Below are positions 1,894-40,931 of a DNA stretch of 64,000 nucleotides, piece after piece (positions within the stretch are counted from its first letter, which is position 1; each line of letters starts with the position of its first letter). The translations under genes were made by a program, and so were the position numbers. Location: assembly GCF_054482525.1 (NCBI RefSeq), contig NZ_CM137006.1. One strand, 5' to 3'. The notes under the pieces were generated by a model that had not been told where the DNA came from, searched no databases, and was given only the letters and a program-made list of their open reading frames with translations.

Positions 1894-4419
1894 ATGCCTT
1901 TACGACGGTTCTCCCCAGGACTGAAAGCCCAGTTTGCCTTCGGCATGGTCTTTTTGTTCGTTCAGCCCGATGCCAGCGCTGCTGACATAAGTGCGCAGCA
2001 AATAGGTGGGGTGATTATTCCGCAGGCCTTCAGTCAGGCGCTTCAGGACGGCATGAGCGTCCCGCTCTATATTCATCTTGCCGGTAGCCAGGGTCGCCAG
2101 GACGATCAGCGAATCGGCAGCGCTTTTATCTGGCTGGATGATGGACAGCTACGCATCCGGAAAATACAGCTTGAAGAGAGTGAAGATAACGCCAGTGTCA
2201 GCGAACAAACTCGACAACAGCTGATGGCTCTGGCGAACGCCCCGTTCAATGAGGCCCTTACCATCCCCCTGACTGACAACGCGCAGCTGGATCTCAGCTT
2301 GCGCCAACTGCTGCTGCAGCTGGTGGTCAAGCGCGAAGCGCTGGGCACTGTACTACGCTCACGTAGCGAAGACATCGGGCAGTCCAGTGTTAACGCCCTC
2401 AGCAGTAATCTGAGCTATAACTTCGGCATCTATAACAACCAGTTGCGTAACGGCGGGAGCAACACATCCAGCTATCTGTCGCTGAATAACGTTACAGCAC
2501 TGCGCGAACATCATGTGGTGCTCGACGGCTCGCTGTATGGGATCGGTAGCGGTCAACAGGACAGTGAATTATATAAAGCGATGTATGAACGCGATTTTGC
2601 TGGTCACCGATTTGCCGGTGGAATGCTCGACACCTGGAACTTGCAGTCCTTAGGGCCGATGACCGCCATTTCAGCAGGGAAGATTTACGGCCTTTCCTGG
2701 GGAAACCAGGCCAGCTCCACCATCTTCGACAGCAGCCAGTCAGCCACGCCAGTGATCGCCTTTTTACCGGCGGCGGGCGAAGTACATCTCACCCGTGATG
2801 GGCGGCTACTAAGCGTTCAGAACTTCACCATGGGCAATCATGAAGTGGATACCCGGGGTCTACCGTACGGTATTTACGATGTGGAAGTTGAGGTGATCGT
2901 TAACGGTCGCGTGATCAGCAAACGCACTCAACGGGTCAATAAGCTGTTTAGCCGGGGGCGCGGCGTCGGTGCACCACTGGCGTGGCAGATATGGGGTGGT
3001 AGCTTTCATATGGATCGCTGGTCGGAAAACGGGAAAAAGACGCGACCAGCTAAAGAGAGTTGGCTGGCAGGTGCCTCGACCTCCGGCTCACTGAGTACGC
3101 TTAGCTGGGCGGCAACGGGATATGGATACGATAATCAGGCGGTGGGTGAAACCCGTCTGACGCTGCCGCTTGGGGGAGCGATCAACGTTAACCTGCAAAA
3201 TATGCTGGCCAGTGACAGCTCATGGAGCAACATCGCCAGCATCAGCGCCACTCTACCGGGAGGCTTTAGTTCGCTGTGGGTTAACCAGGAAAAAACCCGC
3301 ATTGGCAATCAATTGCGACGTAGCGATGCCGACAACCGTGCAATCGGCGGCACACTCAACCTGAACTCACTGTGGTCGAAGCTGGGCACATTCAGCATCA
3401 GCTACAATGATGACCGCCGTTACAACAGCCATTATTACACGGCAGATTACTATCAAAATGTCTACAGCGGTCCCTTTGGTTCGCTTGGCCTGCGGGCCGG
3501 TATTCAGCGCTATAACAACGGCGACAGCAGCGCCAATACAGGGAAATATATCGCTCTCGATCTCTCGCTACCACTGGGCAACTGGTTTAGCGCAGGGATG
3601 ACCCATCAAAACGGCTACACCATGGCAAACCTGTCAGCACGCAAACAGTTTGATGAAGGAACCATTCGCACTGTTGGTGCCAATCTGTCACGAGCCATCT
3701 CCGGCGATACCGGTGATGACAAAACCCTCAGCGGTGGGGCGTATGCACAGTTCGACGCTCGTTACGCCAGCGGAACGCTGAACGTCAATAGCGCGGCGGA
3801 CGGCTACATCAATACCAATTTGACCGCCAACGGCAGCGTCGGCTGGCAAGGTAAAAACATCGCTGCCAGCGGGCGGACCGATGGCAATGCTGGGGTGATA
3901 TTCGACACTGGCCTGGAGAACGATGGTCAGATCAGCGCCAAAATCAACGGGCGGATTTTCCCGCTTAACGGCAAGCGTAACTATCTCCCGCTCTCTCCCT
4001 ATGGAAGATATGAGGTGGAGTTACAGAACAGCAAAAACTCACTCGACAGTTACGATATCGTCAGCGGTCGCAAAAGCCATCTGACTCTCTATCCAGGCAA
4101 TGTCGCTGTCATTGAGCCAGAGGTGAAGCAGATGGTTACCGTCTCCGGTCGTATCCGTGCGGAAGACGGCACACTGCTGGCTAACGCACGGATTAACAAC
4201 CATATCGGCCGAACCCGAACCGATGAAAACGGCGAGTTTGTCATGGACGTGGACAAGAAATACCCCACTATCGATTTTCGCTACAGTGGCAATAAAACCT
4301 GCGAAGTGGCACTGGAACTCAACCAGGCGCGCGGTGCCGTCTGGGTCGGTGATGTGGTCTGCAGCGGCCTCTCATCGTGGGCGGCGGTGACGCAGACAGG
4401 AGAAGAGAATGAGAGTTAA
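1894..4419 (+). CDS. ecpC: Outer-membrane usher EcpC
   Basis: 841 aa, signal peptide, usher-like size and Gly/Ser/Tyr-rich beta-barrel composition; operon position. Confidence 0.85.
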
Positions 4420-20124: not shown

Positions 20125-20604
20125 TCAAAGCAGACCATGTTCAGCGAACGACAATATCTGCGTACCACCGACGATAAGGTGGTCGAGCACCCGGATCTCC
20201 ACCAGCATCAGTGCATGTAACAGTCGTTGAGTGATAGCCTTGTCGGCCTGGCTTGGAGTCACTTCTCCGGACGGGTGGTTATGGGCAAATATCACCGCCG
20301 CCGCATTAAAGTACAGCGCGCGTTTCACCACCTCGCGAGGATGAACCTCAGTGTGACTGATGGTGCCGGTAAAGAGCGTTTCGTGGGCAAGCAGCTGGTT
20401 CTGGTTATTGAGGTACAACACGACAAACACTTCGCGCTCAAGGGGGCCCATTTTCAGCCTGAGCCAGTCGCGGGCAGCCTGAGTCGAGGTGAATGCCACA
20501 CCCGGTTCTAGCAAGTGCTGGTCAAGCAGAACCAAGGCTCGCTTAATGGTACGCAGTGCTGGTAACGGCAGTTCAGGTGTAAACATAGTCAGTTGTTTCG
20601 CCAT
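20125..20604 (-). CDS. RadC-like JAB-domain protein (YeeS/YkfG-like)
   Basis: JAMM-like motif HNHPSGEVTPSQADKAIT; 159 aa. Confidence 0.75.
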   Translation of the reverse strand: MAKQLTMFTPELPLPALRTIKRALVLLDQHLLEPGVAFTSTQAARDWLRLKMGPLEREVFVVLYLNNQNQLLAHETLFTGTISHTEVHPREVVKRALYFNAAAVIFAHNHPSGEVTPSQADKAITQRLLHALMLVEIRVLDHLIVGGTQILSFAEHGLL

Positions 20605-20980
20605 AGCAAATATCCTTAATTAAAGGTGGTGAGAATGACACTGGATTCGGCACGACAGGCGTGATGGTCGTATTCGAGTAGGAAGATGGTAATATGATTG
20701 CGGAATGCATGAGGAAACGAAGCCAGCAATGACCCAGTGACTCACACCCAATCACAGTGTTAAAAATAAAAAAATCCCGCAATCCAGCGAGGATTGCATT
20801 GGGATAATATCTATCTGTAATTATTTAGAAAAAATGTTTTTTTTCTGAGGTCTATTATAAATTTTTTTCGTTCAGAAACTTCTCGGATATGATCATCTGC
20901 TGAGTACCAAGAACGGACATTGTACCCAATAGTGAGTTAATCATTGGAACGTTGATCACCCCAATTGAAAATTTTCACAA

Positions 20981-21003
20981 TATCCAATATCCAATATCCA
21001 ATA
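20981..21003. repeat. Short tandem repeat (tatccaa x3)
   Basis: tatccaatatccaatatccaatat read directly from sequence. Confidence 0.6.
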
Positions 21004-21032
21004 TATCGGTGTAGAGGGCTTCTCTCTTAAAC

Positions 21033-22230
21033 TGATCCTACCCGCGTAATGTGGACACGCTCCTAAGCGAGATTCTGGTTTTCAAACTGTTTCGGGCTGA
21101 GGCCGCCATAATCGCTGTGACGCCGCCAGCGATTGTAATCGCACTTAATCCGCCGTCCGCATGATTTCCCGGCTGATAAAGCGTTCTCCGTGGATACACT
21201 CGACTTTTAACGAGTGTAAGAAGCTTTCCGCACAGGCATTATCATAACAGCAACCTTTTGCGCTCATGCTGCCATGCAGATTATGTCGTTTCAGCAGAGC
21301 CTGATAATCCGCTGAGCAGTACTGCCCGCCACGGTCGGTGTGAATTCGCCGCCACAGCGCCATCTGCAGTGCATCACAGGCAAGTTCTGCCGTTATTTGC
21401 GAGGACACCAACTAGCCAATAATAGCACGCGACCACCAGTCTATAACCACGGCAAAGTATAACAAGCTTTCATCGATGCGAAGGTACGTGATGTCACCAG
21501 CCCACTTCTGGTCCGAGCCACTAGATCTGAAGTCCTGCTTCAGCAGATTCTCCGGCACTGGCTGGTCGTGAGCACAGTAGATTAACGGGCTGAACAGACG
21601 TGAGGTTTTTGCCCGCAGGCCCTGACGACGCGAACTGTTGCTATCGTTTTGATGTTGTATTCCGGCGGCTCGTCTGCAAGACGAGCCGCACCATAACGCT
21701 GTTTTGCCTCAACGAATACCTTACAGACAGCTTCATTGAAGACGCACCGGAACTGTTGCCGATGGCTCAGTTGGGGACGACGCAGACACCAGGTATACCA
21801 GCAGCTGTGCGCCACGCACAGCACCCGACACATAGCTTTGATACTGAACTCAACCTGATATTTTTCGATAAAGATATACTTCATTTCAGGCGCTACGCGA
21901 AGTATGTCGCGCCCTTTTGGAGAATAGCCAACTCATTATCCCGCTCAGCCAGTTGACGTTTGAGGCAGGCAATCTCCGCTGCTTGTGCGCTCTCTCTCAG
22001 AGGATATTGTCTGGTGCAGTTGTTTGTAGAGCTGGGAATCGTAAAGGCTGAGTTCACGGGCGGTAGTGGCCACACCGAGACGTTCGGCCAACTTAAGGGC
22101 TTCTTCACGAAATTCAGGCGTGTGTTGTTTGCGTGACTTTTGTTGATTGATGCTGATTTTGTCATGTGAGCTACCTCTGATTGAGAGTTTACTCGCTTAG
22201 TCCCGTGTCCACTATTGGTGGGTAGGATCA
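21033..22230 (-). mobile_element. Degraded IS3-family insertion sequence (frameshifted orfA, interrupted orfB)
   Basis: Terminal inverted repeats tgatcctaccc (21033) and gggtaggatca (22220); ORFs 21893..22231, 21582..21884 and 21145..21411 match InsE C-terminus ([23 protein letters not shown]) and InsF N- and C-terminal parts, but not as continuous frames. Confidence 0.75.
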
Positions 22231-22579
22231 TTATTGATCAAAGATCAAGATGTGCAAAAATTCCCAAGTAAAGCCTTATCTGAACCTTCCGTTTTGTTAG
22301 CACATCTGACATTATTATTCAGTCAAATCCCTTCAGTTGATTGAGTTCAAAGGCGGTAGCTATGCTGATTTGCATTACTGTAAAACTTTTAAAGCAGAGG
22401 TTTATATAGAATTGCTCTGTTGAATAAATTAGTAGGTTCACATGGATTTTGAGTTCACCAAGCATGACAACTTGCGTTCTTCAAGCGATCCTGAGAAGCC
22501 TATTATATTAGTGTACAAGATGCCTCACGTGGCACCACTGAATTTTACATTAGACTCTATCCATTAAAACGATAAAATT

Positions 22580-24313
22580 ATGTACATAGCAAAAATTAAA
22601 TTTACAAATTTCAAATCATTCAAAGAGATGTCTTTTGAGTGCAATGATAAATTCAACATAATTGTTGGTGAAAATAATATTGGTAAAAGCACATTATTTG
22701 AGGGGGTAAGTTTATGGAAATATGCTTATGACAACCTTATTCAAGAAAAAAACAAAAACAAATTCTACAAAGCTTCAACTAACTACTACATTACCTATTC
22801 TACACTCGATCAAATAAGACTTGTTGACGATATTGATATTTTTAACGACCCAAAGAATAGCTCCGCATCAATATGCATTACAATTAAAGATGAACAAAAT
22901 GAATTTGATTTAGAGATTAGATTTGAAAAGCCAGGGATTAAAAATTCATACTTACGGATATTTAATAGCAATGGTTCTGATAATGACACACAGTTTTCAA
23001 ACTTTGAACGATTCTCAAACTATATAAAAGAAAAGGATTGCACTCTAAAAGATGCCATTTACATTTACCAAACAAGACCAATATCAACTATTTTTAGAGA
23101 TGAGCCATTTTACAATAATGCGCAGATAGAGAAAAAAATAAATATTGGAAAGTCACATGATGTCTTAAGGAATAAAATATTAAAAACCGAAAATACTCAA
23201 GCCACAAGGGTTGCACAAAAATTTGAAAATCTTGAGATTCGCCTACAAAAAGTCCTTGGTGAAAACTATATCTTAAAATTTAAGAATAGAAATCGAATCG
23301 ATGATGAGTATGTTAAAATAACTGCAACAAAGGAAAACGGGAAAGAATTGGAAATATCACTTATGGGTAGTGGTTTTTTGCAAGTCTTAGAGATATTTTC
23401 AACAATTGAGTATATGGAAAAGAATTCAACCGGTATTAACCTCATTCTTATCGATGAGCCTGATTCACATATCCACTCAAATTTACAAGCAAATTTAATT
23501 GACGAACTAAAGCAACAAACAGCATGTCAAATTTTTGTCATAACACATAATGACAGACTAACATCAAAAGCTAATGAAGGTGAGCTTTTTTATCTAAATC
23601 AGATAGTTAAGGATCTTGGTTTATTGTCTCACCTTGAAATATCTGATTATTCAAAAGTTAAAGATGGTCTAGCTAATGTACTAACAGCTATAAATGATGG
23701 AGATGAAACACCCATTGTTATAACTGAAGGAAAAACGGACCAGAAAATTTTAACAACTGCTTGGGAAAAGCTAAACCCAGGAACTCCTATGCCTTTTAAA
23801 ATAATTTCATCCGGCATTCAAATTGAAGAGGAAAAAAGAACTGGGTGCGCAGAGGCAGTTAGAAGATCTTTAGAATACATTTCAACATTAACTGATAGAA
23901 CAATTATCGGTTTATTTGATAATGATCGGGAGGGAAATGAGCAGTTCAAAGGATTAAATCGTTCTATTTTTGAACCTCATGACCTGCAAAATAACTCCCG
24001 AAAACATCAGATAAAAAATATCTATGGGCTTATTCTTCCCGTTCCTGTGCATAGAGAACGTTTTGTACAAAACAATTCTTTAACGCAGCGTTACTTCGTA
24101 ATTGAACAATATTTCCAAGATGAAATATTACTACAGCATAACATGAAAGGTGAGTCAATATTAGGTACTGAGGTATTTTTTGTTAATGACTCAAGAAAGA
24201 ATGAGTTTTCAGAGTCAACCAATGACCTTCCGGTAGAATGCTTTGGGGATTTTAGTATTTTATTCGATAAAATTTCCGATTTATTGGCTAACAATAGACC
24301 AGAAAACACTTGA
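22580..24313 (+). CDS. OLD-family ATP-dependent endonuclease (ABC-type ATPase + C-terminal TOPRIM)
   Basis: Walker A GENNIGKST, Walker B/H-loop LILIDEPDSHIH, TOPRIM glutamate IVITEGKTD and DxD motif FDNDREG; 577 aa; strongly AT-rich codon usage. Confidence 0.7.
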   Translation: MYIAKIKFTNFKSFKEMSFECNDKFNIIVGENNIGKSTLFEGVSLWKYAYDNLIQEKNKNKFYKASTNYYITYSTLDQIRLVDDIDIFNDPKNSSASICITIKDEQNEFDLEIRFEKPGIKNSYLRIFNSNGSDNDTQFSNFERFSNYIKEKDCTLKDAIYIYQTRPISTIFRDEPFYNNAQIEKKINIGKSHDVLRNKILKTENTQATRVAQKFENLEIRLQKVLGENYILKFKNRNRIDDEYVKITATKENGKELEISLMGSGFLQVLEIFSTIEYMEKNSTGINLILIDEPDSHIHSNLQANLIDELKQQTACQIFVITHNDRLTSKANEGELFYLNQIVKDLGLLSHLEISDYSKVKDGLANVLTAINDGDETPIVITEGKTDQKILTTAWEKLNPGTPMPFKIISSGIQIEEEKRTGCAEAVRRSLEYISTLTDRTIIGLFDNDREGNEQFKGLNRSIFEPHDLQNNSRKHQIKNIYGLILPVPVHRERFVQNNSLTQRYFVIEQYFQDEILLQHNMKGESILGTEVFFVNDSRKNEFSESTNDLPVECFGDFSILFDKISDLLANNRPENT

Positions 24314-25088
24314 TACTGTACTGCATTTTCCATATCGAGCTAAAACGGACCATTCGCTTTTAAAGTGATTACGGCATACGGGACAGATTTTCCTTAAAGC
24401 AAACGTCTCCTTCACGCCCTGAGACATTCGACATTAAGTAAGAACGGGGGTGCGCCTCGAGTGCCAGCAAATATTTTGCTTCGTCGTAGCGGGTTCTGGT
24501 CATCCAGCAGCTGTAAATGATCCTTATCCATTTATACGCCAGAGCCCAAATGGCTGATTGATGCGATTTTCCTTTTCTTCGCAGCTCTTACTAATAAAGT
24601 CTGGCCCAGAATGATGAGTTAATCGTCTTTGCAGCCCATTCCACGAATGTCTGTCGGACGAGCTCCGCACATTGCCAACATCAGTGTACCCAAGATTTCT
24701 GGCCGCTTTGTTCTGTCACCGGAAAAATACCTGCGTAGTTTTGAATTTCTTCAGCGCAGTTTAACTGGTCACGGTTACTTGAAGAAAGAAACTGACCACT
24801 GCGCTCGTCGTTCGGAAGTGCCAGGGCTATCGGTGGATATTAAGGGAAACCTGACAGCCGGAGGTAATCAGGGTTATTAATGCCGTCAGTGTGGGCCCCG
24901 CTACCAGTGAAACACTAATGTATTGATTAAGTTTCATATTCTTCCTTAATGAAAATAAGCATGTTTTCTTTTGCTAAATCAGTCGTCGTTGGCGATGAAA
25001 CCGGCTCACACATCACGCGATTGTTAAATGAAAAAGCCCCTATTGCGTGAGCAACAGGGGCTATATTTATTTTGTGTCTATAGAGGCA

Positions 25089-31466: not shown

Positions 31467-31490
31467 GAAGGAAGAAGGAAGAAGGAAGAA
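31467..31490. repeat. Tandem hexamer repeat (gaagga x4)
   Basis: gaaggaagaaggaagaaggaagaa read directly, in the non-coding region upstream of alpA. Confidence 0.6.
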
Positions 31491-33963: not shown

Positions 33964-34753
33964 ATTCGGTACATCGTTTTGCTGGTGGCACTATATTTGC
34001 GCCACAACGCCATAGTGTGTCAACCACACCGCTATTCCCCTCACAATACCGTTAAACCATTCAACCACATGGCGTCAGTCTGCCCATCAAGGGCGGCTTA
34101 CACCTGCTTGCAGAAGTCGGATTATATTTGACGCCAACGACGGTAATAGTCGTTTGACGAGCGCCAGAACGGTACAGAAAGATATATAGTATCGTAGGCA
34201 GGCTTGATACCCCTGTTATCGTGCAGTCTTGGCACTGCGCTTGGTTCGGATACCATTACTAGGGCAAAAAGCACTGTGTGGTCTGTGGTATCGGGAAATA
34301 TAGCACGGAAGAATCAAACTGGCTGATGAATGACACCAGAGCGCCTGCGTGAGGTCCACCGTATTTCCTCCAACCAACACAGAGAAAAAATCATAATGAG
34401 CTACCACCAGTTAATCATCACAAATACAAAGTCGGCGGACAGTGCACGCATTCACCACGTATTACAGCAACCCGGATGGTTTCGAAATACAATTGGCAGC
34501 GTTGAAAGAGGTTGCATTGCAAATGGTTTTTTCAGTGATGACTGCCTGCAGTGACCTGTTTAAATGATCACTGTCACGTTATCTGGATTGCGCAGTTGCT
34601 TGGGTTGCAGTATGTCTCATCTTAGACTGTGTTGATGTTATTGTTGAGATCAGCACTCCGGCAGATGGCCAAATTCAGTAAACCACTTCAAAAGGCACAT
34701 TTATGCAACCTCATCAGCGGTGACCCGTAAAAATTGCAAATTAAGGAGCAATA

Positions 34754-36853
34754 ATGAACCGAGAGCAAGCCCAACAACTGCTGCAGACTGCTTTGGCTAA
34801 CCCTGCTGCTGAATTTCGTGATGGTCAGTGGGAAGCCATTGATGCATTGGTTAATCGTCGTCAGAAACTACTGGTTGTACAGCGTACCGGCTGGGGTAAG
34901 AGCTCGGTTTATTTTATTAGTACTAAAATCTTCCGTGACCGCGAGATGGGGCCTACGATTATTGTATCGCCACTGCTTGCATTAATGCGTAACCAGATTG
35001 ATTCAGCGCAGCGTTTGGGAATAGTTGCCGAAACAATGAATTCGGCTAATAGGGAGGATTGGCAGGCTGTAACTCAACGAATTCTCAATAACCAAATAGA
35101 CTGTTTGCTCATTTCCCCAGAGCGGCTAGCAAATGATACCTTTATTGAGACGGTCCTTCAGCCCATTGCCGATCGAATCGCCCTAATGGTAATTGACGAA
35201 GCACACTGTATTTCAGATTGGGGTCATGATTTTCGTCCTGATTATCGCCGTATCGTAAATATCCTTCGTCAATTGCCCGCCAACACCCCAGTACTAGGTA
35301 CGACTGCAACTGCCAATAACCGAGTTGTTGACGATATCCAAGCCCAGCTTGGGGATATACAAATCCACCGAGGTCCTCTTACTCGCGAAAGCCTCGCTCT
35401 GCATACAATGTCTTTACCCGATCAGGCATCTCGTTTAGCTTGGCTCGCCCAAGTTATTCCGATGCTACATGGAACAGGCATTATTTACGCATTAACAGTT
35501 CGTGATGCCGAGCAGGTGGCAGAATGGTTGAGCATGCACGGTATAGTTGCCATGGCATACCACGGTAGCATCGAGGCTGAAGGTTTTGAGAACAGCAATG
35601 CTTACCGTCAGTACTTAGAAGAATTGTTACTTAACAACCAGCTTAAGGTTTTAGTAGCAACGACCGCGTTGGGTATGGGTTATGATAAACCTGATTTAAG
35701 TTTTGTAATCCATTACCAAGCTCCGAGTTCAATTGTTGCATACTACCAGCAGGTGGGTCGGGCTGGGCGCGGTATTGCTCATGCAACAGGTGTACTGATG
35801 TCGGGGATAGAAGATAACGACATCCATGATTTTTTCCGTGATTCTGCATTTCCATCGGAGGATCAAGTTAACGATATTCTTCGAGTGTTGGAAAATAATG
35901 ATGGTCTATCACTCCGCAACATCGAGGAAAAAACTAACCTACGCCACGGCCAGATTGAGAAAGTACTTAAGTTACTGAGTGTAGAAAATCCAGCCCCCAT
36001 CATTAAAAATGAAAATCGTTGGGTTAGGACCACAGTTCGCTATCAAATGGATCATGCCCGAATTGCTCATTTGACAGGACAACGTATTCAGGAATGGGAA
36101 GAGGTTCAAGCGTACCTTACCGACACTGGATGCAAAATGGCATTTCTACGTCGTTCTCTGGACGATCTCGACCCAACTCCATGTGGTAAATGCTCGTCCT
36201 GTATTGGTCAACCAATTATAAATCAAATCATTGACCCTGCTTTGGTACATCGTGCAGGGACTTTCCTAAAACATGCAGAAATGCCGATTACTCCAAAAGC
36301 TCAGGTAGCAGCTAATGCTTTTTTGCAATATGGCTTCAGCGGCAATTTGCCACAGCAGATTAGAGCACAAGAAGGTCGAGTGTTGTCTCGCTGGGGAGAT
36401 GCTGGTTGGGGACGGTTAGTAGCCGATAATAAACGTGCAGATCACTTTGATGATGAGCTAGTGGTTGCTATGGCCGAGATGATTCAGCAGCGTTGGCAAC
36501 CGAATCCAGCGCCACAATGGGTATGCTGTGTACCTTCACGCAATCATGTACAATTAGTCCCTGATTTCGCTCGCCGCTTGGCGGCATGTTTGAGGTTGCC
36601 TTTTTTCAATGCCATCAGCAAGGTTAGAGATAACCAACCTCAAAAGGGGCAACAAAACCGTTTCCATCAATGCCGCAATCTGGACGGTGCTTTTGAGATA
36701 AATCAACCTCTACCTAACACACCGGTTCTACTTGTAGATGACATTGTAGATTCAGGCTGGACGTTAACTGTCATCGCAGCACTCCTACAACGCGCAGGTA
36801 GTGGTAAAGTATACCCTGTTGCACTTGCTTCATCTTCGGTAAAAGACTCATGA
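34754..36853 (+). CDS. RecQ-family helicase fused to a C-terminal phosphoribosyltransferase-like domain (PsyrT-like)
   Basis: Helicase motifs GWGKS (I), DEAH (II), TATA (III), QQVGRAGR (VI); C-terminal type-I PRTase motif VLLVDDIVDSGWTLT. Confidence 0.8.
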   Translation: MNREQAQQLLQTALANPAAEFRDGQWEAIDALVNRRQKLLVVQRTGWGKSSVYFISTKIFRDREMGPTIIVSPLLALMRNQIDSAQRLGIVAETMNSANREDWQAVTQRILNNQIDCLLISPERLANDTFIETVLQPIADRIALMVIDEAHCISDWGHDFRPDYRRIVNILRQLPANTPVLGTTATANNRVVDDIQAQLGDIQIHRGPLTRESLALHTMSLPDQASRLAWLAQVIPMLHGTGIIYALTVRDAEQVAEWLSMHGIVAMAYHGSIEAEGFENSNAYRQYLEELLLNNQLKVLVATTALGMGYDKPDLSFVIHYQAPSSIVAYYQQVGRAGRGIAHATGVLMSGIEDNDIHDFFRDSAFPSEDQVNDILRVLENNDGLSLRNIEEKTNLRHGQIEKVLKLLSVENPAPIIKNENRWVRTTVRYQMDHARIAHLTGQRIQEWEEVQAYLTDTGCKMAFLRRSLDDLDPTPCGKCSSCIGQPIINQIIDPALVHRAGTFLKHAEMPITPKAQVAANAFLQYGFSGNLPQQIRAQEGRVLSRWGDAGWGRLVADNKRADHFDDELVVAMAEMIQQRWQPNPAPQWVCCVPSRNHVQLVPDFARRLAACLRLPFFNAISKVRDNQPQKGQQNRFHQCRNLDGAFEINQPLPNTPVLLVDDIVDSGWTLTVIAALLQRAGSGKVYPVALASSSVKDS

Positions 36854-38175
36854 ATGTATCTAACTTATTGTCAAAAACAGCCCAGGCGACCTTACTTCTG
36901 ACTAGTTATTTTTCTAAAGCAACTAGCGAAAACGCCAAACCACTTTCCAACGCCGAATGGGGACGTTTTGCGCTATGGTTGAAAGAAAAAGCAGTTACGC
37001 CAGCTGACTTGTTGGACTCTGATCCTCAAACCTTACTGAATGGCTGGTACGACTCCCGTATCAGTACGGATCGGATCATTGAGTTGATGAATCGAGGACA
37101 TAGCCTCGCTTTGGCTATGGAGAAATGGCAACGGGCAGGCTTGTGGGTAGTGACACGTTCTGATCCAGAATATCCATGGAGATTAAAACATCGGCTTAAA
37201 ACAGACTCTCCCCCTGTTTTATTTGGCTGTGGCAATAAAGCCTTATTAAATAGAGGGGGATTGGCTGTCATTGGTTCTCGAAATGCCAATGCATCAGACC
37301 TTACTTTTACTGATCACATCGGCGTTAAAGCTGCGGACGAAAATATAGCTGTTGTATCTGGTGCTGCACGTGGAGTAGACGAAACAGCCATGTTAGGTGC
37401 AATGAGGCAAGGTGGAGTTGTAATCGGGATTTTGGCAGATAGCCTGTTAAAAGCTGCGACTAGTGCCAAATGGCGCAAGGGGCTTATGAATGACCATGTT
37501 GTGCTAATATCCCCTTTTTACCCTGAGGCTGGTTTCTATGCGGGAAATGCCATGGCTCGCAATAAATATATCTATTGCTTGTCGGATAGTGCATTGGTTA
37601 TTCATTCTGGTCGAAAAGGTGGAACAATTAGTGGGGCAGAGGAAAATCTTAAGAAAGGATGGGTGCCACTATGGGTCAATCCAACAACCGATCTAGATTC
37701 AGCTAATGCTGACTTAGTGAGCAAAGGGGGACATTGGTTGCCAAGTGATAGTAATGGCCTATCCATCGAGAATTTGCTTAAAAATAATGACAGATCAAAA
37801 ATGCAGTTAAAAGCAGAGCCCCAAGATCTTTTTTCAGAATTGTCGCATCCAGAATTAATTATTGGATCTGCAGAGAAATCGTCAACTCAAGCTCTCGAAA
37901 AAGATTGGACTGCTACTATTAATGAAGAAACTCCCAACCTAATAACTACGGAAAAAAAATTAGAGGAAAAAGAGTTAGATGTAAATCCTATAGACTTTTA
38001 TCTGCTATTCAGGACAGAATTACAGCGATTGGCCGAACATCCAATTACAGTAGATAGGTTGACAGAAGTCACTGGGTTGAATAAATCGCAAGTGCTTGAT
38101 TGGTTGAAACGTGCTGAACAAGATGGTTTGGTAAAAAAACTAAACCGTCCTACAAGATATCAATTAAATGAGTAG
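36850..38175 (+). CDS. DprA/Smf-like Rossmann-fold protein with C-terminal winged helix (PsyrA/ShosA-like)
   Basis: DprA core LAVIGSRNA...VVSGAARGVDETAMLGA...GGTI; ATGA start/stop overlap with the upstream helicase gene. Confidence 0.75.
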   Translation: MNVSNLLSKTAQATLLLTSYFSKATSENAKPLSNAEWGRFALWLKEKAVTPADLLDSDPQTLLNGWYDSRISTDRIIELMNRGHSLALAMEKWQRAGLWVVTRSDPEYPWRLKHRLKTDSPPVLFGCGNKALLNRGGLAVIGSRNANASDLTFTDHIGVKAADENIAVVSGAARGVDETAMLGAMRQGGVVIGILADSLLKAATSAKWRKGLMNDHVVLISPFYPEAGFYAGNAMARNKYIYCLSDSALVIHSGRKGGTISGAEENLKKGWVPLWVNPTTDLDSANADLVSKGGHWLPSDSNGLSIENLLKNNDRSKMQLKAEPQDLFSELSHPELIIGSAEKSSTQALEKDWTATINEETPNLITTEKKLEEKELDVNPIDFYLLFRTELQRLAEHPITVDRLTEVTGLNKSQVLDWLKRAEQDGLVKKLNRPTRYQLNE

Positions 38176-38356
38176 TAACAGGCTTTAATGAAGCAACTAT
38201 AACCGGTTTGGCCTTAATGATTTTTAGTTAAGCTTGGGCATATAAAAGTTTAGAATTGATATAATGGTATTCAATTACATTAGTGTTGAGCTAATGTAAT
38301 TGATCCTGATTTAAATATCATCTATCAGAATTGAACAATTTTACATAGTTTATACT

Positions 38357-39346
38357 TTATGTCTTTCTTTCAAGTGCAACTCCTAGATCCGCTGCCATTT
38401 TTTGGATTAGCCTCCAATCTAGCGGCCATTCTTTTTCTAAAGTAGATCTCCGTCTTTTGATTAACCAGTAAACGAAAATAACAACGCTTTGTTCAAAGAA
38501 ACTACTCCCTTCTTTGCCATCCTGAATTAGTAGTTCGAGCTCAGGAGTCTCTTCTATAAATTGATGTAATCTTTCTATCGTATCGGGTTTGATCACTTCT
38601 TTAAATGTATCTAGAATTAATAAAGTCGATTTTTGATTGTTTGGTTTATTCTTTGTTAAAGCTATGTAGATATTATCTAAAGTTCGCTGAATTCCTGCGT
38701 AACCATCAGATGCTGCGTTAATTGCTTTCGATACTGAACAGAAAAAATCATCCGTAGTTTCTATTAACGCCATGCTTTTTGCTACAGTTCTATGTATATC
38801 TGGTTCAACTATAGTTTTTGCTTTATATATGGCATCATGAGTTAACTCGGCATAGGCATGTTGTAATAAAGATCTAACCTGTATCTCACATGGAATGCCT
38901 TGTTCAATGATAACTCCATTATAATCAAAGGATTCTTTTGCAGTTACTATAAAATGTACGGATTGATACGTGAAAATTAATGGTGTATTTAATCTTTCTT
39001 CTTCGTAGTGTCTTGATGTCTTATAATGCCATTTATTACTACTTTTTATTATTTCACATATTTCATCTATATCTGAAGTAAGTAAAACGACAAACCTGAT
39101 GCCAACTTTATCTTCAATCTCTTGGTAGGGGTTTTTGTATGATTTTTCTTTTCGATGAAAAGCTTTATCGATTAGAGATGTCTTTTCTTTTATTCTCGGT
39201 GTCGCAGGTTGCTTGAGAAAGCTATTGAGGTCCCGCTCTTTATTTTCTGAGAGTTCTTTGCAAATATTTGAGACGACAAAATCTCCCCATGCTTTATACA
39301 TGGGTAGTTCTTTTTCCCAAAGTTGCGAAAACTCTAATTCATTCAT
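38357..39346 (-). CDS. RelA/SpoT-fold nucleotidyltransferase (toxSAS-like)
   Basis: Synthetase-domain signature PRIKEKTSLIDKAFHRKE, GIRFVV, YQSVHFIV and CEIQVRSLLQHAYAELTHDAIYK (EIQIRT..QHxWAE..H..YK); AT-rich. Confidence 0.7.
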   Translation of the reverse strand: MNELEFSQLWEKELPMYKAWGDFVVSNICKELSENKERDLNSFLKQPATPRIKEKTSLIDKAFHRKEKSYKNPYQEIEDKVGIRFVVLLTSDIDEICEIIKSSNKWHYKTSRHYEEERLNTPLIFTYQSVHFIVTAKESFDYNGVIIEQGIPCEIQVRSLLQHAYAELTHDAIYKAKTIVEPDIHRTVAKSMALIETTDDFFCSVSKAINAASDGYAGIQRTLDNIYIALTKNKPNNQKSTLLILDTFKEVIKPDTIERLHQFIEETPELELLIQDGKEGSSFFEQSVVIFVYWLIKRRRSTLEKEWPLDWRLIQKMAADLGVALERKT

Positions 39347-39354
39347 TAATTAGC

Positions 39355-40446
39355 TCATTCCTGAAGGGTTATCTTGTCCTTGATGAGGATTGTTGTCCAC
39401 TCAGCAGGTTTACCATCTTTATCGAGTTCACCTATAGTAGATTCAATTACAATATGGCTTTTAAAAACTTCCGCAGGGGCTGTGATTTTTATATTTTTAC
39501 TAAAGTTAAGCTTTCTTGTTTTTAATTTGCTTTCAATATGCTCGTTGTCTCTTGTGAAAGAGGTTTGTGGTATACCAGATTCATGAGCATACTCAAGATA
39601 AAGATCCTTAATACTATCATCAAAAAATCTTTCAGCATAATCTTTAGCTGAAATTACATCCGATTTTTCATGTTTAAGATATGTAACTAATGCATTTTTA
39701 AGCACATTTTTCTTTTCCTCGCTGACATCCAATTCATTAAGAAATTCACTCGTTTTTTCATAGAAATTCTTTGTTGTGCGGGCACTTGTTTCTGGGTAAC
39801 CGCAACCTAAAAAATTTTGATAAAAATATTGTGCTGCAGCTTTACCATCCGACTTACTGATTTGATAGTCAGAAATCATCACATCCCAAGATTTATTAAG
39901 ATCAGTATTATCAAGAGAATTGGTTGATTGGAAAAAACCGGCAGTTTTATAAAGTTTTGTGGATGGTGTAAGTAATATTTCTTCAACGAATTTTAATGAT
40001 ATTTGGCCCGTTTTATCGTCGATTACTTTTTCATATGCACTATAAATATCAGCCTTGATAATTCCAATGAATTTTCTTTTATTTACACCATAGTCGCCAG
40101 AAAAGATTACTACAATTCCGCCTGGAATTGCTCGTCTTGTCTGCGCATCTGCCAGTTTATTAGCTATTGTGTAAGTCTCATCAATATAATCCTCTCCCTC
40201 TTTATCAATTAAAGTTGTAGCAATATAAGGAACATAATCTTTTCCATGCTCCTTTATTTGCATTTTTACGGCTTTAGAACCATCACCTAAAGCGTCGATT
40301 ACTCGTGATTTAAAACCTTGCAAGGCATCAGCATCAAATTTTATAAATGAAGAACCTCTTGTTGGTTCTATTTTGTTTCCTTCTTCGTCGCGCTGATGAA
40401 TTTGGTGGATAATTATTTTGTTAATATTCATTTTGCTGATATTCAT
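39355..40446 (-). CDS. NA37-family nucleoid-associated protein homolog (YejK/NdpA-like)
   Basis: Similarity along the whole length to remembered YejK: N-terminus INKIIIHQIHQRDE vs INQIALHQLIKRDE, and central and C-terminal blocks; AT-rich. Confidence 0.65.
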   Translation of the reverse strand: MNISKMNINKIIIHQIHQRDEEGNKIEPTRGSSFIKFDADALQGFKSRVIDALGDGSKAVKMQIKEHGKDYVPYIATTLIDKEGEDYIDETYTIANKLADAQTRRAIPGGIVVIFSGDYGVNKRKFIGIIKADIYSAYEKVIDDKTGQISLKFVEEILLTPSTKLYKTAGFFQSTNSLDNTDLNKSWDVMISDYQISKSDGKAAAQYFYQNFLGCGYPETSARTTKNFYEKTSEFLNELDVSEEKKNVLKNALVTYLKHEKSDVISAKDYAERFFDDSIKDLYLEYAHESGIPQTSFTRDNEHIESKLKTRKLNFSKNIKITAPAEVFKSHIVIESTIGELDKDGKPAEWTTILIKDKITLQE

Positions 40447-40463
40447 TTCTGTGTAGTTCCATC

Positions 40464-40931
40464 TTATTGATTATCTGATTTTATATTTTTGCTTTCAATA
40501 TATTCTTTGTGAATATTATTCCATTCTTGACTGTCTTTTTCCCAAATAGATTTATATTCATCAAAAAGACTATCAATATCTGACTGGGTTACATCTTCTT
40601 TGGATTTTAAGTAATTAACTTTGTTTCTAAGTTGATACATGGCTAGCAAAGTAGCTTTTTGCCTAAACCATAATTTTTGATAATCAAATCTTGCAGTCCA
40701 CCCACTAACTAGAGTAAGACAGGCACTCACAATAAGAGCAGAATTTTTCTGTATTTTTTCATATCCAGATAAATCGAAGGCTAATATCAGTGTAGTAATA
40801 GTGCTCAAAAATATAGTCATGAAAAAAAATATTTTTAATTTTTTTTTATTCCATTTCGCCTTGCACTTTATTATGTTGATACTTTTATGGATTTCATCCA
40901 GTAAAAACTGTTGAGAAGATGTTATAGACAA
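40464..40931 (-). CDS. Small 2-TM membrane protein, SLATT-like
   Basis: Two hydrophobic helices (FFFMTIFLSTITTLILAF, ALIVSACLTLVSGW) followed by a charged helical tail; first gene of the three-gene operon. Confidence 0.5.
   Translation of the reverse strand: MSITSSQQFLLDEIHKSINIIKCKAKWNKKKLKIFFFMTIFLSTITTLILAFDLSGYEKIQKNSALIVSACLTLVSGWTARFDYQKLWFRQKATLLAMYQLRNKVNYLKSKEDVTQSDIDSLFDEYKSIWEKDSQEWNNIHKEYIESKNIKSDNQ

Follow-up and report, generated by a model that had tools for sequence, protein, structure and literature searches.

A perfect heptamer array beside a decayed IS3-family element in a CP4-like island: probable slippage expansion in an orphaned control region

Introduction

How did a perfect tandem heptamer come to lie just outside the end of a decayed insertion sequence (IS), and does it do anything there? 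The question is raised by a 64,000-nt stretch of contig NZ_CM137006.1 (RefSeq assembly GCF_054482525.1), hereafter the window, in which a first-pass annotation made from the letters alone had noticed three copies of tatccaa some 30 bp from the left end of an IS3-like element, and had proposed either a slipped-strand artefact or a recombination hotspot. Here we describe the array and the DNA that carries it, compare its copy number across strains and orthologous alleles, and weigh the functional and non-functional readings of this locus.

Results

The array occupies positions 20978–21004 on the + strand of the window, where 27 nt (CAATATCCAATATCCAATATCCAATAT) form 3.9 perfect copies of CAATATC. 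Tandem Repeats Finder returned a period of 7, 3.9 copies, 100% matches, no indels, and a score of 54, and both this call and the sequence itself confirm the perfect tatccaa triple reported earlier at 20981–21003, now as part of a slightly longer array. In that first register (20981–21001) the units fall at 20981–20987, 20988–20994, and 20995–21001, followed by tat. The array end (21004) is separated by 28 nt from the inverted repeat of the IS3-family element (21033–21071), which fits the distance of 30 bp given previously. All units are identical to one another, pointing to a recent origin without independent divergence. Since 200 first-order Markov simulations of the 64-kb window contained no perfect repeat of period 4–12 and at least 20 nt, and the real window contains two, the array at 20978–21004 is beyond chance. 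The second of these repeats is another perfect heptamer array, GAAGGAA x3.4, at 31467–31490; it is intergenic, lies in the same island, and precedes a gene annotated in strain SCU-102 as an HTH regulator.

Over 40 kb, the window differs from the chromosome of Escherichia coli SCU-102 (NZ_CP051753.1) by 3 mismatches and one gap. The left-hand neighbor of the array is radC (20125–20604, − strand), a member of a CP4-like island (radC, DUF987, yeeU antitoxin, cbtA toxin), and an intrinsic terminator (20770–20798, − strand) of the island backbone sits between radC and the control-region remnant described below; backbone homologous to that at the terminator is present in E. coli NCTC9064. The right-hand neighbor is the gene for an OLD-family ATP-dependent nuclease (22580–24313, + strand), identified by its annotation and by PADLOC matches to NsnB, GajA, and AriAB. 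The segment running from upstream of radC to the nuclease is rare, being detected at the megablast level in 1 of 5,426 complete E. coli genomes. The nuclease likewise occurs in only one of these 5,426 genomes, and an identical protein was found in ~50 blocks of draft or metagenome contigs. Elsewhere in the same island (~34755–40930; 34155–40332 in locus L001), the SCU-102 annotation lists a RecQ-family helicase together with DprA as one set and, as another, a GTP pyrophosphokinase, a nucleoid-associated protein, and a SLATT-domain protein; both sets are candidate defense modules.

The IS3-family element itself spans 21033–22230 (− strand) and was delimited from its inverted repeats, a transposase remnant, and the RefSeq annotation. 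Its inverted repeats (21033–21071 and 22192–22230) are imperfect, with 39 nt and 79% complementarity, and its termini are of the TG...CA type (starting TGATCC... and ending ...GGATCA). Matches to rve, rve_2, and rve_3 fall on a minus-strand ORF at 21148–21411 that represents the remnant of the transposase, the orfA-like ORF has no Pfam match, and RefSeq annotates an IS3 family transposase that is frameshifted and has an internal stop. Because the transposase remnants read on the minus strand, the end next to the array is the transposase-distal IRR: the earlier description of an IS3 left end is right in that an IS end adjoins the array, and "left" applies in window coordinates only. IS3-family elements duplicate 3–5 bp directly at the inverted repeat. 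No target-site duplication is present here (left flank AAC, right flank TTA), which points to a secondary deletion or an IS-associated rearrangement, and the sequence to the right of the IS does not continue the control region that the element interrupts. The IS, junctions included, is common to the window and to L038, a locus ~1% diverged from it, with 11-bp and 6-bp indels and 12 substitutions separating the two copies inside the element. The element is thus an old insertion followed by an adjacent deletion. It resembles other IS3-family insertions with an adjacent deletion in its TG...CA terminal inverted repeats, its DDE (rve) remnants, and its site in an intergenic control region, and differs from them in being a pseudogene, in the missing target-site duplication, and in having no close relative among 5,426 complete E. 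coli genomes outside the source lineage (SCU-102). The deleted DNA cannot be reconstructed, since the DNA to the right of the IS (22231–23000) has no homologues in E. coli genomes except SCU-102, and its only match among plasmids, at 71%, lies inside a nuclease gene of a Pseudoalteromonas plasmid.

The DNA to the left of the element, including the array, proved to be the remains of a control region. A sensitive search matched positions 20896–21032 (+ strand), at 73–82% identity, to an element that carries no annotation and occurs in 692 E. coli genomes and 503 plasmid records, the latter mainly from conjugative Klebsiella IncF plasmids. In these homologues the element runs into ...TTAAACCGTTAAAGGATAACTATCATG and an ORF, that is, ...GAGGGCTTCCCTCTTAAACCGTTAAAGGATAACTATC-ATG, a 42-codon ORF (MGLKPGPKPIAKSTGKPDQRRRDNKDTPGNTPGLKPSKSTGK), and then a hairpin. 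In the window, homology to the element ends at ...CTCTTAAAC, the inverted repeat of the IS follows directly, 18 nt before the expected ATG, and the Shine-Dalgarno sequence and the ORF are missing. No copy of the 42-aa ORF was found anywhere in the 64-kb window, nor was a second copy of the control region; the 9-mer GAGTTAATC at 24616 is a chance match within a transposase remnant. Positions 20896–21032 are therefore the leftover upstream region of the gene for the 42-aa protein, whose ribosome-binding site and ORF were removed by the IS or by the adjacent deletion. That the element does not resume on the right flank of the IS, that the target-site duplication is lacking, and that the ORF is absent all indicate an IS-associated gene loss, which places the repeat in an orphaned control region.

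Conservation among 14 enterobacterial orthologues extends roughly 135–180 nt upstream of the ATG. RNAalifold on the 14 orthologous 5' regions gave a weak consensus (−7.6 kcal/mol) with 0 compensatory pairs and no covarying structure, and Rfam, searched with two homologous loci and permissive E-values, had no match in the element, so the conservation acts at the level of DNA sequence. A structured leader or riboswitch is not supported, given the lack of compensatory pairs. A separate hairpin with a conserved loop (GTCCGCT-cagtgccaga-AGCGGAC type) forms the 5' edge of the conserved module, at 20897–20919 in the window and ~4005–4030 in locus L002. It also occurs in E. coli NCTC9064 (L046, ~3590–3615) without the small ORF, at the junction of the CP4-like backbone (radC upstream region) with unrelated cargo. 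This hairpin could act as a terminator or a site of recombination, or could belong to an upstream promoter, GTGCCA-N16-CACAAT.

To the right of this region, intact alleles carry the small ORF (L002 4142–4270, L007 6001–6129, L014 6055–6183, L015 6001–6144, and L013 6001–6153), which encodes a basic protein of 42–50 aa with the pattern M.LKPGPKPIAKSTGKPDQRRRDNK.TPGNTP.LKPSKS... Clustering of its homologues gives 340 groups at 90% identity and 230 at 50% identity, and an exhaustive HMM search returned 230 clusters, all of them small proteins, with no relatives in larger domains. By far most of the differences between alleles are synonymous and fall at third positions (for the Klebsiella and Acidovorax alleles, 22 of 39 codons differ synonymously and 4 non-synonymously); judged from these substitutions, the small ORF is a real gene under strong purifying selection. 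No family for the protein exists in Pfam, NCBIfam, or PADLOC, the match in PHROGs is at chance level (E = 0.1), no relative was found in the PDB, and a literature search found no papers on the peptide. AlphaFold modeled it essentially as coil (pLDDT 67, pTM 0.21), and the protein is probably disordered.

The small gene is not confined to Enterobacterales, where it stands alone with its own conserved upstream region: Vibrio (V. anguillarum), Acidovorax, and Chlorobium carry it as an integron-array cassette between attC-type repeats. Its neighbor in Enterobacterales is consistently the Shango defense system (10.1101/2022.05.11.491447), with which it is convergent. In Pectobacterium, in contigs with the Enterobacter roggenkampii-type allele, and in Klebsiella plasmids, three genes that PADLOC identifies as SngA/SngB/SngC (E = 3e-95 to 1e-280) form an operon on the opposite strand, its 3' end facing the small ORF from ~60–150 nt downstream (L005–L012, L021–L028, L002, L003). 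Directly upstream of the control region, each strain carries different defense-type cargo, including a retron-like RT with PRTase, Metallophos with an ORC/CDC6-like protein, DUF6119, a caspase-helicase, and NYN. The small gene looks like the fixed border of a defense-cargo hotspot. In E. coli O26:H11 11368 (L004, 4255–4265) an ISCro1-like element of the IS66 family interrupts the ORF at codon 40, and this interrupted allele is present in ~690 E. coli genomes; with the IS66-family cut in the O26-type allele, the small gene has been struck by insertion sequences in more than one lineage.

Within the control region, the array lies between two hexamers that match promoter consensus sequences, TTGAAA (−35-like, 20965–20970, + strand) and TATATC (−10-like, 21002–21007, + strand). 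Their spacing is 31 nt in the window vs 17 nt in orthologues. In our own PWM scan, TTGAAA-N17-TATAT[C/G/T], at −72 to −43 from the ATG, came out as the top sigma-70 candidate, at a conserved position, for 13 of the 15 orthologues that were scored, and the Pectobacterium version (L012, TTGAAA-17-TATATT) was called by a promoter scan tool at 10/12. The −10-like hexamer lacks the conserved final T in most alleles, a strict promoter scan found no site in L002 or in positions 20600–21100 of the window, and an alternative candidate, GTGCCA-N15/16-CACAAT, lies further upstream. We infer a promoter role for the TTGAAA-N17-TATAT[C/G/T] pair on these sequence matches, and refer to it as the putative promoter.

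Copy number was compared across strains through loci retrieved by exact look-ups of the RadC and nuclease proteins and by a metagenome scan for the allele-specific left flank. Ten further copies of the IS-interrupted locus were obtained in this way besides that of SCU-102. The array has 3.9 copies in all eleven near-identical alleles, namely the window and ten others (seven genome or metagenome loci from the protein look-ups, two metagenome contigs, and the complete SCU-102 genome, the first nine being retrieved loci). These sequences differ from the window by at most 5 SNPs per 10 kb, and such near-identity means that little evolutionary time was sampled. Position 21808 is T in the window and C in all nine of the other 3.9-copy sequences whose coverage extends across the full radC-to-nuclease interval, and this is the sole difference across the 1975 bp of that interval. 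The recombination hotspot proposed by the first-pass annotation finds no support, and the invariant repeat number that it had named as its refutation holds for the eleven near-identical alleles.

The ten other independent sequences carry the array unchanged, so it is not an assembly artefact. An assembly or sequencing error, for which nothing speaks beyond the general difficulty of repeats, has next to no chance of being the explanation: 27 nt is far below any read length, and the same array recurs across different projects, in a complete genome, in four drafts, and in five metagenome contigs.

A different state was found in the metagenome contig OKVQ01000002.1 (L038), which is 0.7–1.2% diverged from the window across radC, the IS, and the nuclease. 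It has 1.9 copies and the identical IS junction, ...CTCTTAAAC abutting TGATCCTACCC. Six indels distinguish it from the window. Three fall in T-runs (TT, TTT, and T), two are the 11-bp and 6-bp ones within the IS, and the sixth, of 14 bp, is exactly CAATATCCAATATC at window position 20978. The same 14-bp (2 x 7) gap separates the window from all orthologues in alignments including mafft, with flanks that are collinear on both sides. Among intact orthologues, ~1.9 copies (one unit and a partial copy) were counted in 13 distinct alleles, which cover six genera and come from Klebsiella, E. coli O26, Pectobacterium, Buttiauxella, Ewingella, Dryocola, and an Enterobacterales MAG. The site reads AATATCCAATAT (1.7–1.9 copies) in L038, L040, L002, L003, and L004, and ACATCCCATAT in Pectobacterium-type alleles. 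AATATCCAATAT, a 7-nt unit with a 5-nt partial copy, is the ancestral sequence of the site, and, as both the orthologues and L038 with its same IS junction keep 1.9 copies, parsimony places the expansion after the IS event. An intact small-gene allele of Photorhabdus heterorhabditis (L043, ~235–262) has a 7-nt deletion exactly at the heptamer site, so that it reads TTGAGA-N15-TAATAT rather than TTGAAA-N17-TATATC. This is the second case of a unit-sized indel arising independently here.

Other copy numbers were sought in the common alleles of ~500 plasmids and ~690 E. coli genomes by megablast with synthetic junction queries that match 0.9, 2.9, or 3.9 copies, share no 28-mer with the 1.9-copy allele, and were validated locally with DUST filtering on. 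No such variant was detected, either of the Klebsiella-type allele among 72,556 plasmids or, for the O26-type allele, among 5,426 complete E. coli genomes, both results being subject to the limit that variants with SNPs inside the 45-nt junction escape detection. A 2.9-copy intermediate was not seen among the sampled alleles.

These distributions bear on whether the heptamer could be an array of protein-binding sites, such as iterons, weak DnaA-box-like sites, or transposase or recombinase sites, acting as a recombination or replication hotspot near the IS. Three identical, evenly spaced units would suit such an array, the single copy of Klebsiella-type alleles (TTATCCAAT) agrees with the DnaA box (TTATCCACA) at 7 of 9 positions, and an IS without a target-site duplication signals some rearrangement nearby. 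However, no orthologue keeps multiple copies (all have a unit and a partial copy, and Photorhabdus one unit fewer), the unit of the window agrees with the DnaA box at only 6 of 9 positions, and IS3-family duplications arise directly at the inverted repeat, not 28 nt away from it. The junction is moreover identical in 1.9-copy and 3.9-copy alleles, indicating that the rearrangement preceded the expansion and is unrelated to it; a link between the repeat and IS3 transposition is ruled out on the same ground. We consider a binding-site array extremely unlikely, and dropped the DnaA-box or iteron reading of the heptamer, the extra copies not being conserved.

The position of the array between the hexamers also suggests a phase-variable (contingency) promoter repeat, in which gain or loss of heptamers would alter the −35/−10 spacing and switch the downstream gene. 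Known switches of this kind include the TA repeats between the −35 and −10 of hifA/hifB and the homopolymers in Neisseria porA/opc promoters, which move 1–2 nt between functional and non-functional spacings. The array shares with them a repeat between a putative −35 and −10 whose copy number sets the spacer length; unlike them, it has a step of 7 nt and a spacer that has gone from 17 to 31 nt, a change that is practically irreversible, and there is no gene to control. A 7-bp unit in a promoter region upstream of a gene has a documented counterpart in the hmw1A/hmw2A promoters of Haemophilus influenzae, a graded or phase-variable expression switch whose tracts of 9–28 copies differ from isolate to isolate, with transcript level tracking copy number (PMC2424069). 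Evolution has also produced length changes that are multiples of 7 nt at this very site, +14 in the window and −7 in Photorhabdus. Against a contingency locus, the gene that would be served has been deleted, with an IS pseudogene starting 28 nt beyond the array, the eleven near-identical alleles all agree in copy number, and no variants turned up among the plentiful plasmid and O26-type alleles. The 31-nt spacer would be off in every nearby state, and 3.9 copies fall short of both the hmw tracts and the length typical of high slippage rates: the array is too short for hypermutability and was stable over the timescale sampled. A phase-variable promoter is therefore very unlikely.

Discussion

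The reading we favor, with a probability of roughly 80%, is that slippage expanded the array in DNA without a function and that the change is neutral and fixed. The array has the features of slipped-strand indels at bacterial microsatellites, namely a length difference that is an exact multiple of the unit, identical copies, collinear flanks, and a pre-existing partial direct repeat (AATAT...AATAT, 7 nt apart) as substrate, and differs from them in nothing essential, being short (3.9 copies) and stable in the near-identical alleles sampled. The earlier idea of a slipped-strand artefact thus splits in two: a slippage origin agrees with the 1.9-copy orthologues and their collinear flanks, and a sequencing artefact is contradicted by the ten other independent sequences. 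During replication, nascent AATAT would have mispaired with the AATAT 7 nt upstream, adding one 7-nt unit per event, and the gain of two units, most simply in two steps, would have produced 3.9 copies. On parsimony, the order of events was the IS event first and the two added units later, in the SCU-102-type island lineage. A single unusual 14-bp duplication, or gene conversion, is a possible alternative to stepwise slippage, consistent with the lack of a 2.9-copy intermediate.

Neutrality is a further inference within this slippage reading. The extra 14 bp between the −35-like and −10-like hexamers would abolish the putative promoter by widening its spacing, and since no gene is left to express, this change was probably invisible to selection. 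The 14-bp indel is also one of six between the window and L038, the others being T-run slippages and indels in the IS pseudogene, a pattern of neutral decay.

Silencing could nevertheless have mattered, because the orphaned promoter is oriented in the direction of the OLD-family nuclease gene, which lies ~1.5 kb downstream. The promoter would then have been read antisense through the IS toward the nuclease, and the 14-bp expansion favored for shutting it off. Control-region remnant and nuclease gene share the + strand and are separated by the 1.2-kb IS pseudogene and 349 nt, the expansion falls precisely in the putative spacer, and the 3.9-copy allele is found in all E. coli assemblies sampled. 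Yet the 1.9-copy L038 persists with an intact nuclease ORF region at ~0.75% divergence, the argument depends on a promoter that is itself putative, and a neutral fixed indel covers the same data with fewer assumptions. We regard selected silencing as unlikely. The fuller scenario, in which the orphaned region would be the promoter of the strongly conserved 42-aa protein, 7-nt indels would recurrently reset its spacing, and the expansion would have been selected to silence transcription into the OLD-family nuclease, is quite improbable as a whole.

As a fixed slippage expansion, the repeat is of little importance: it is a textbook slippage indel in decaying intergenic DNA, and nothing suggests a function for it. 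At most, it may serve as a lineage marker of the island allele, with 3.9 copies in SCU-102-like E. coli and 1.9 in the diverged relative. What the analysis usefully delivers is a negative, in that the sampled alleles speak against a contingency locus and give no sign of a recombination hotspot. The context is worth more: the repeat led to a small gene (42 aa) that is strongly selected but missing from annotations and that moves in integron cassettes. This gene marks the border between the Shango operon and a variable defense-cargo slot in enterobacterial chromosomes and IncF plasmids, and it may merit separate study.
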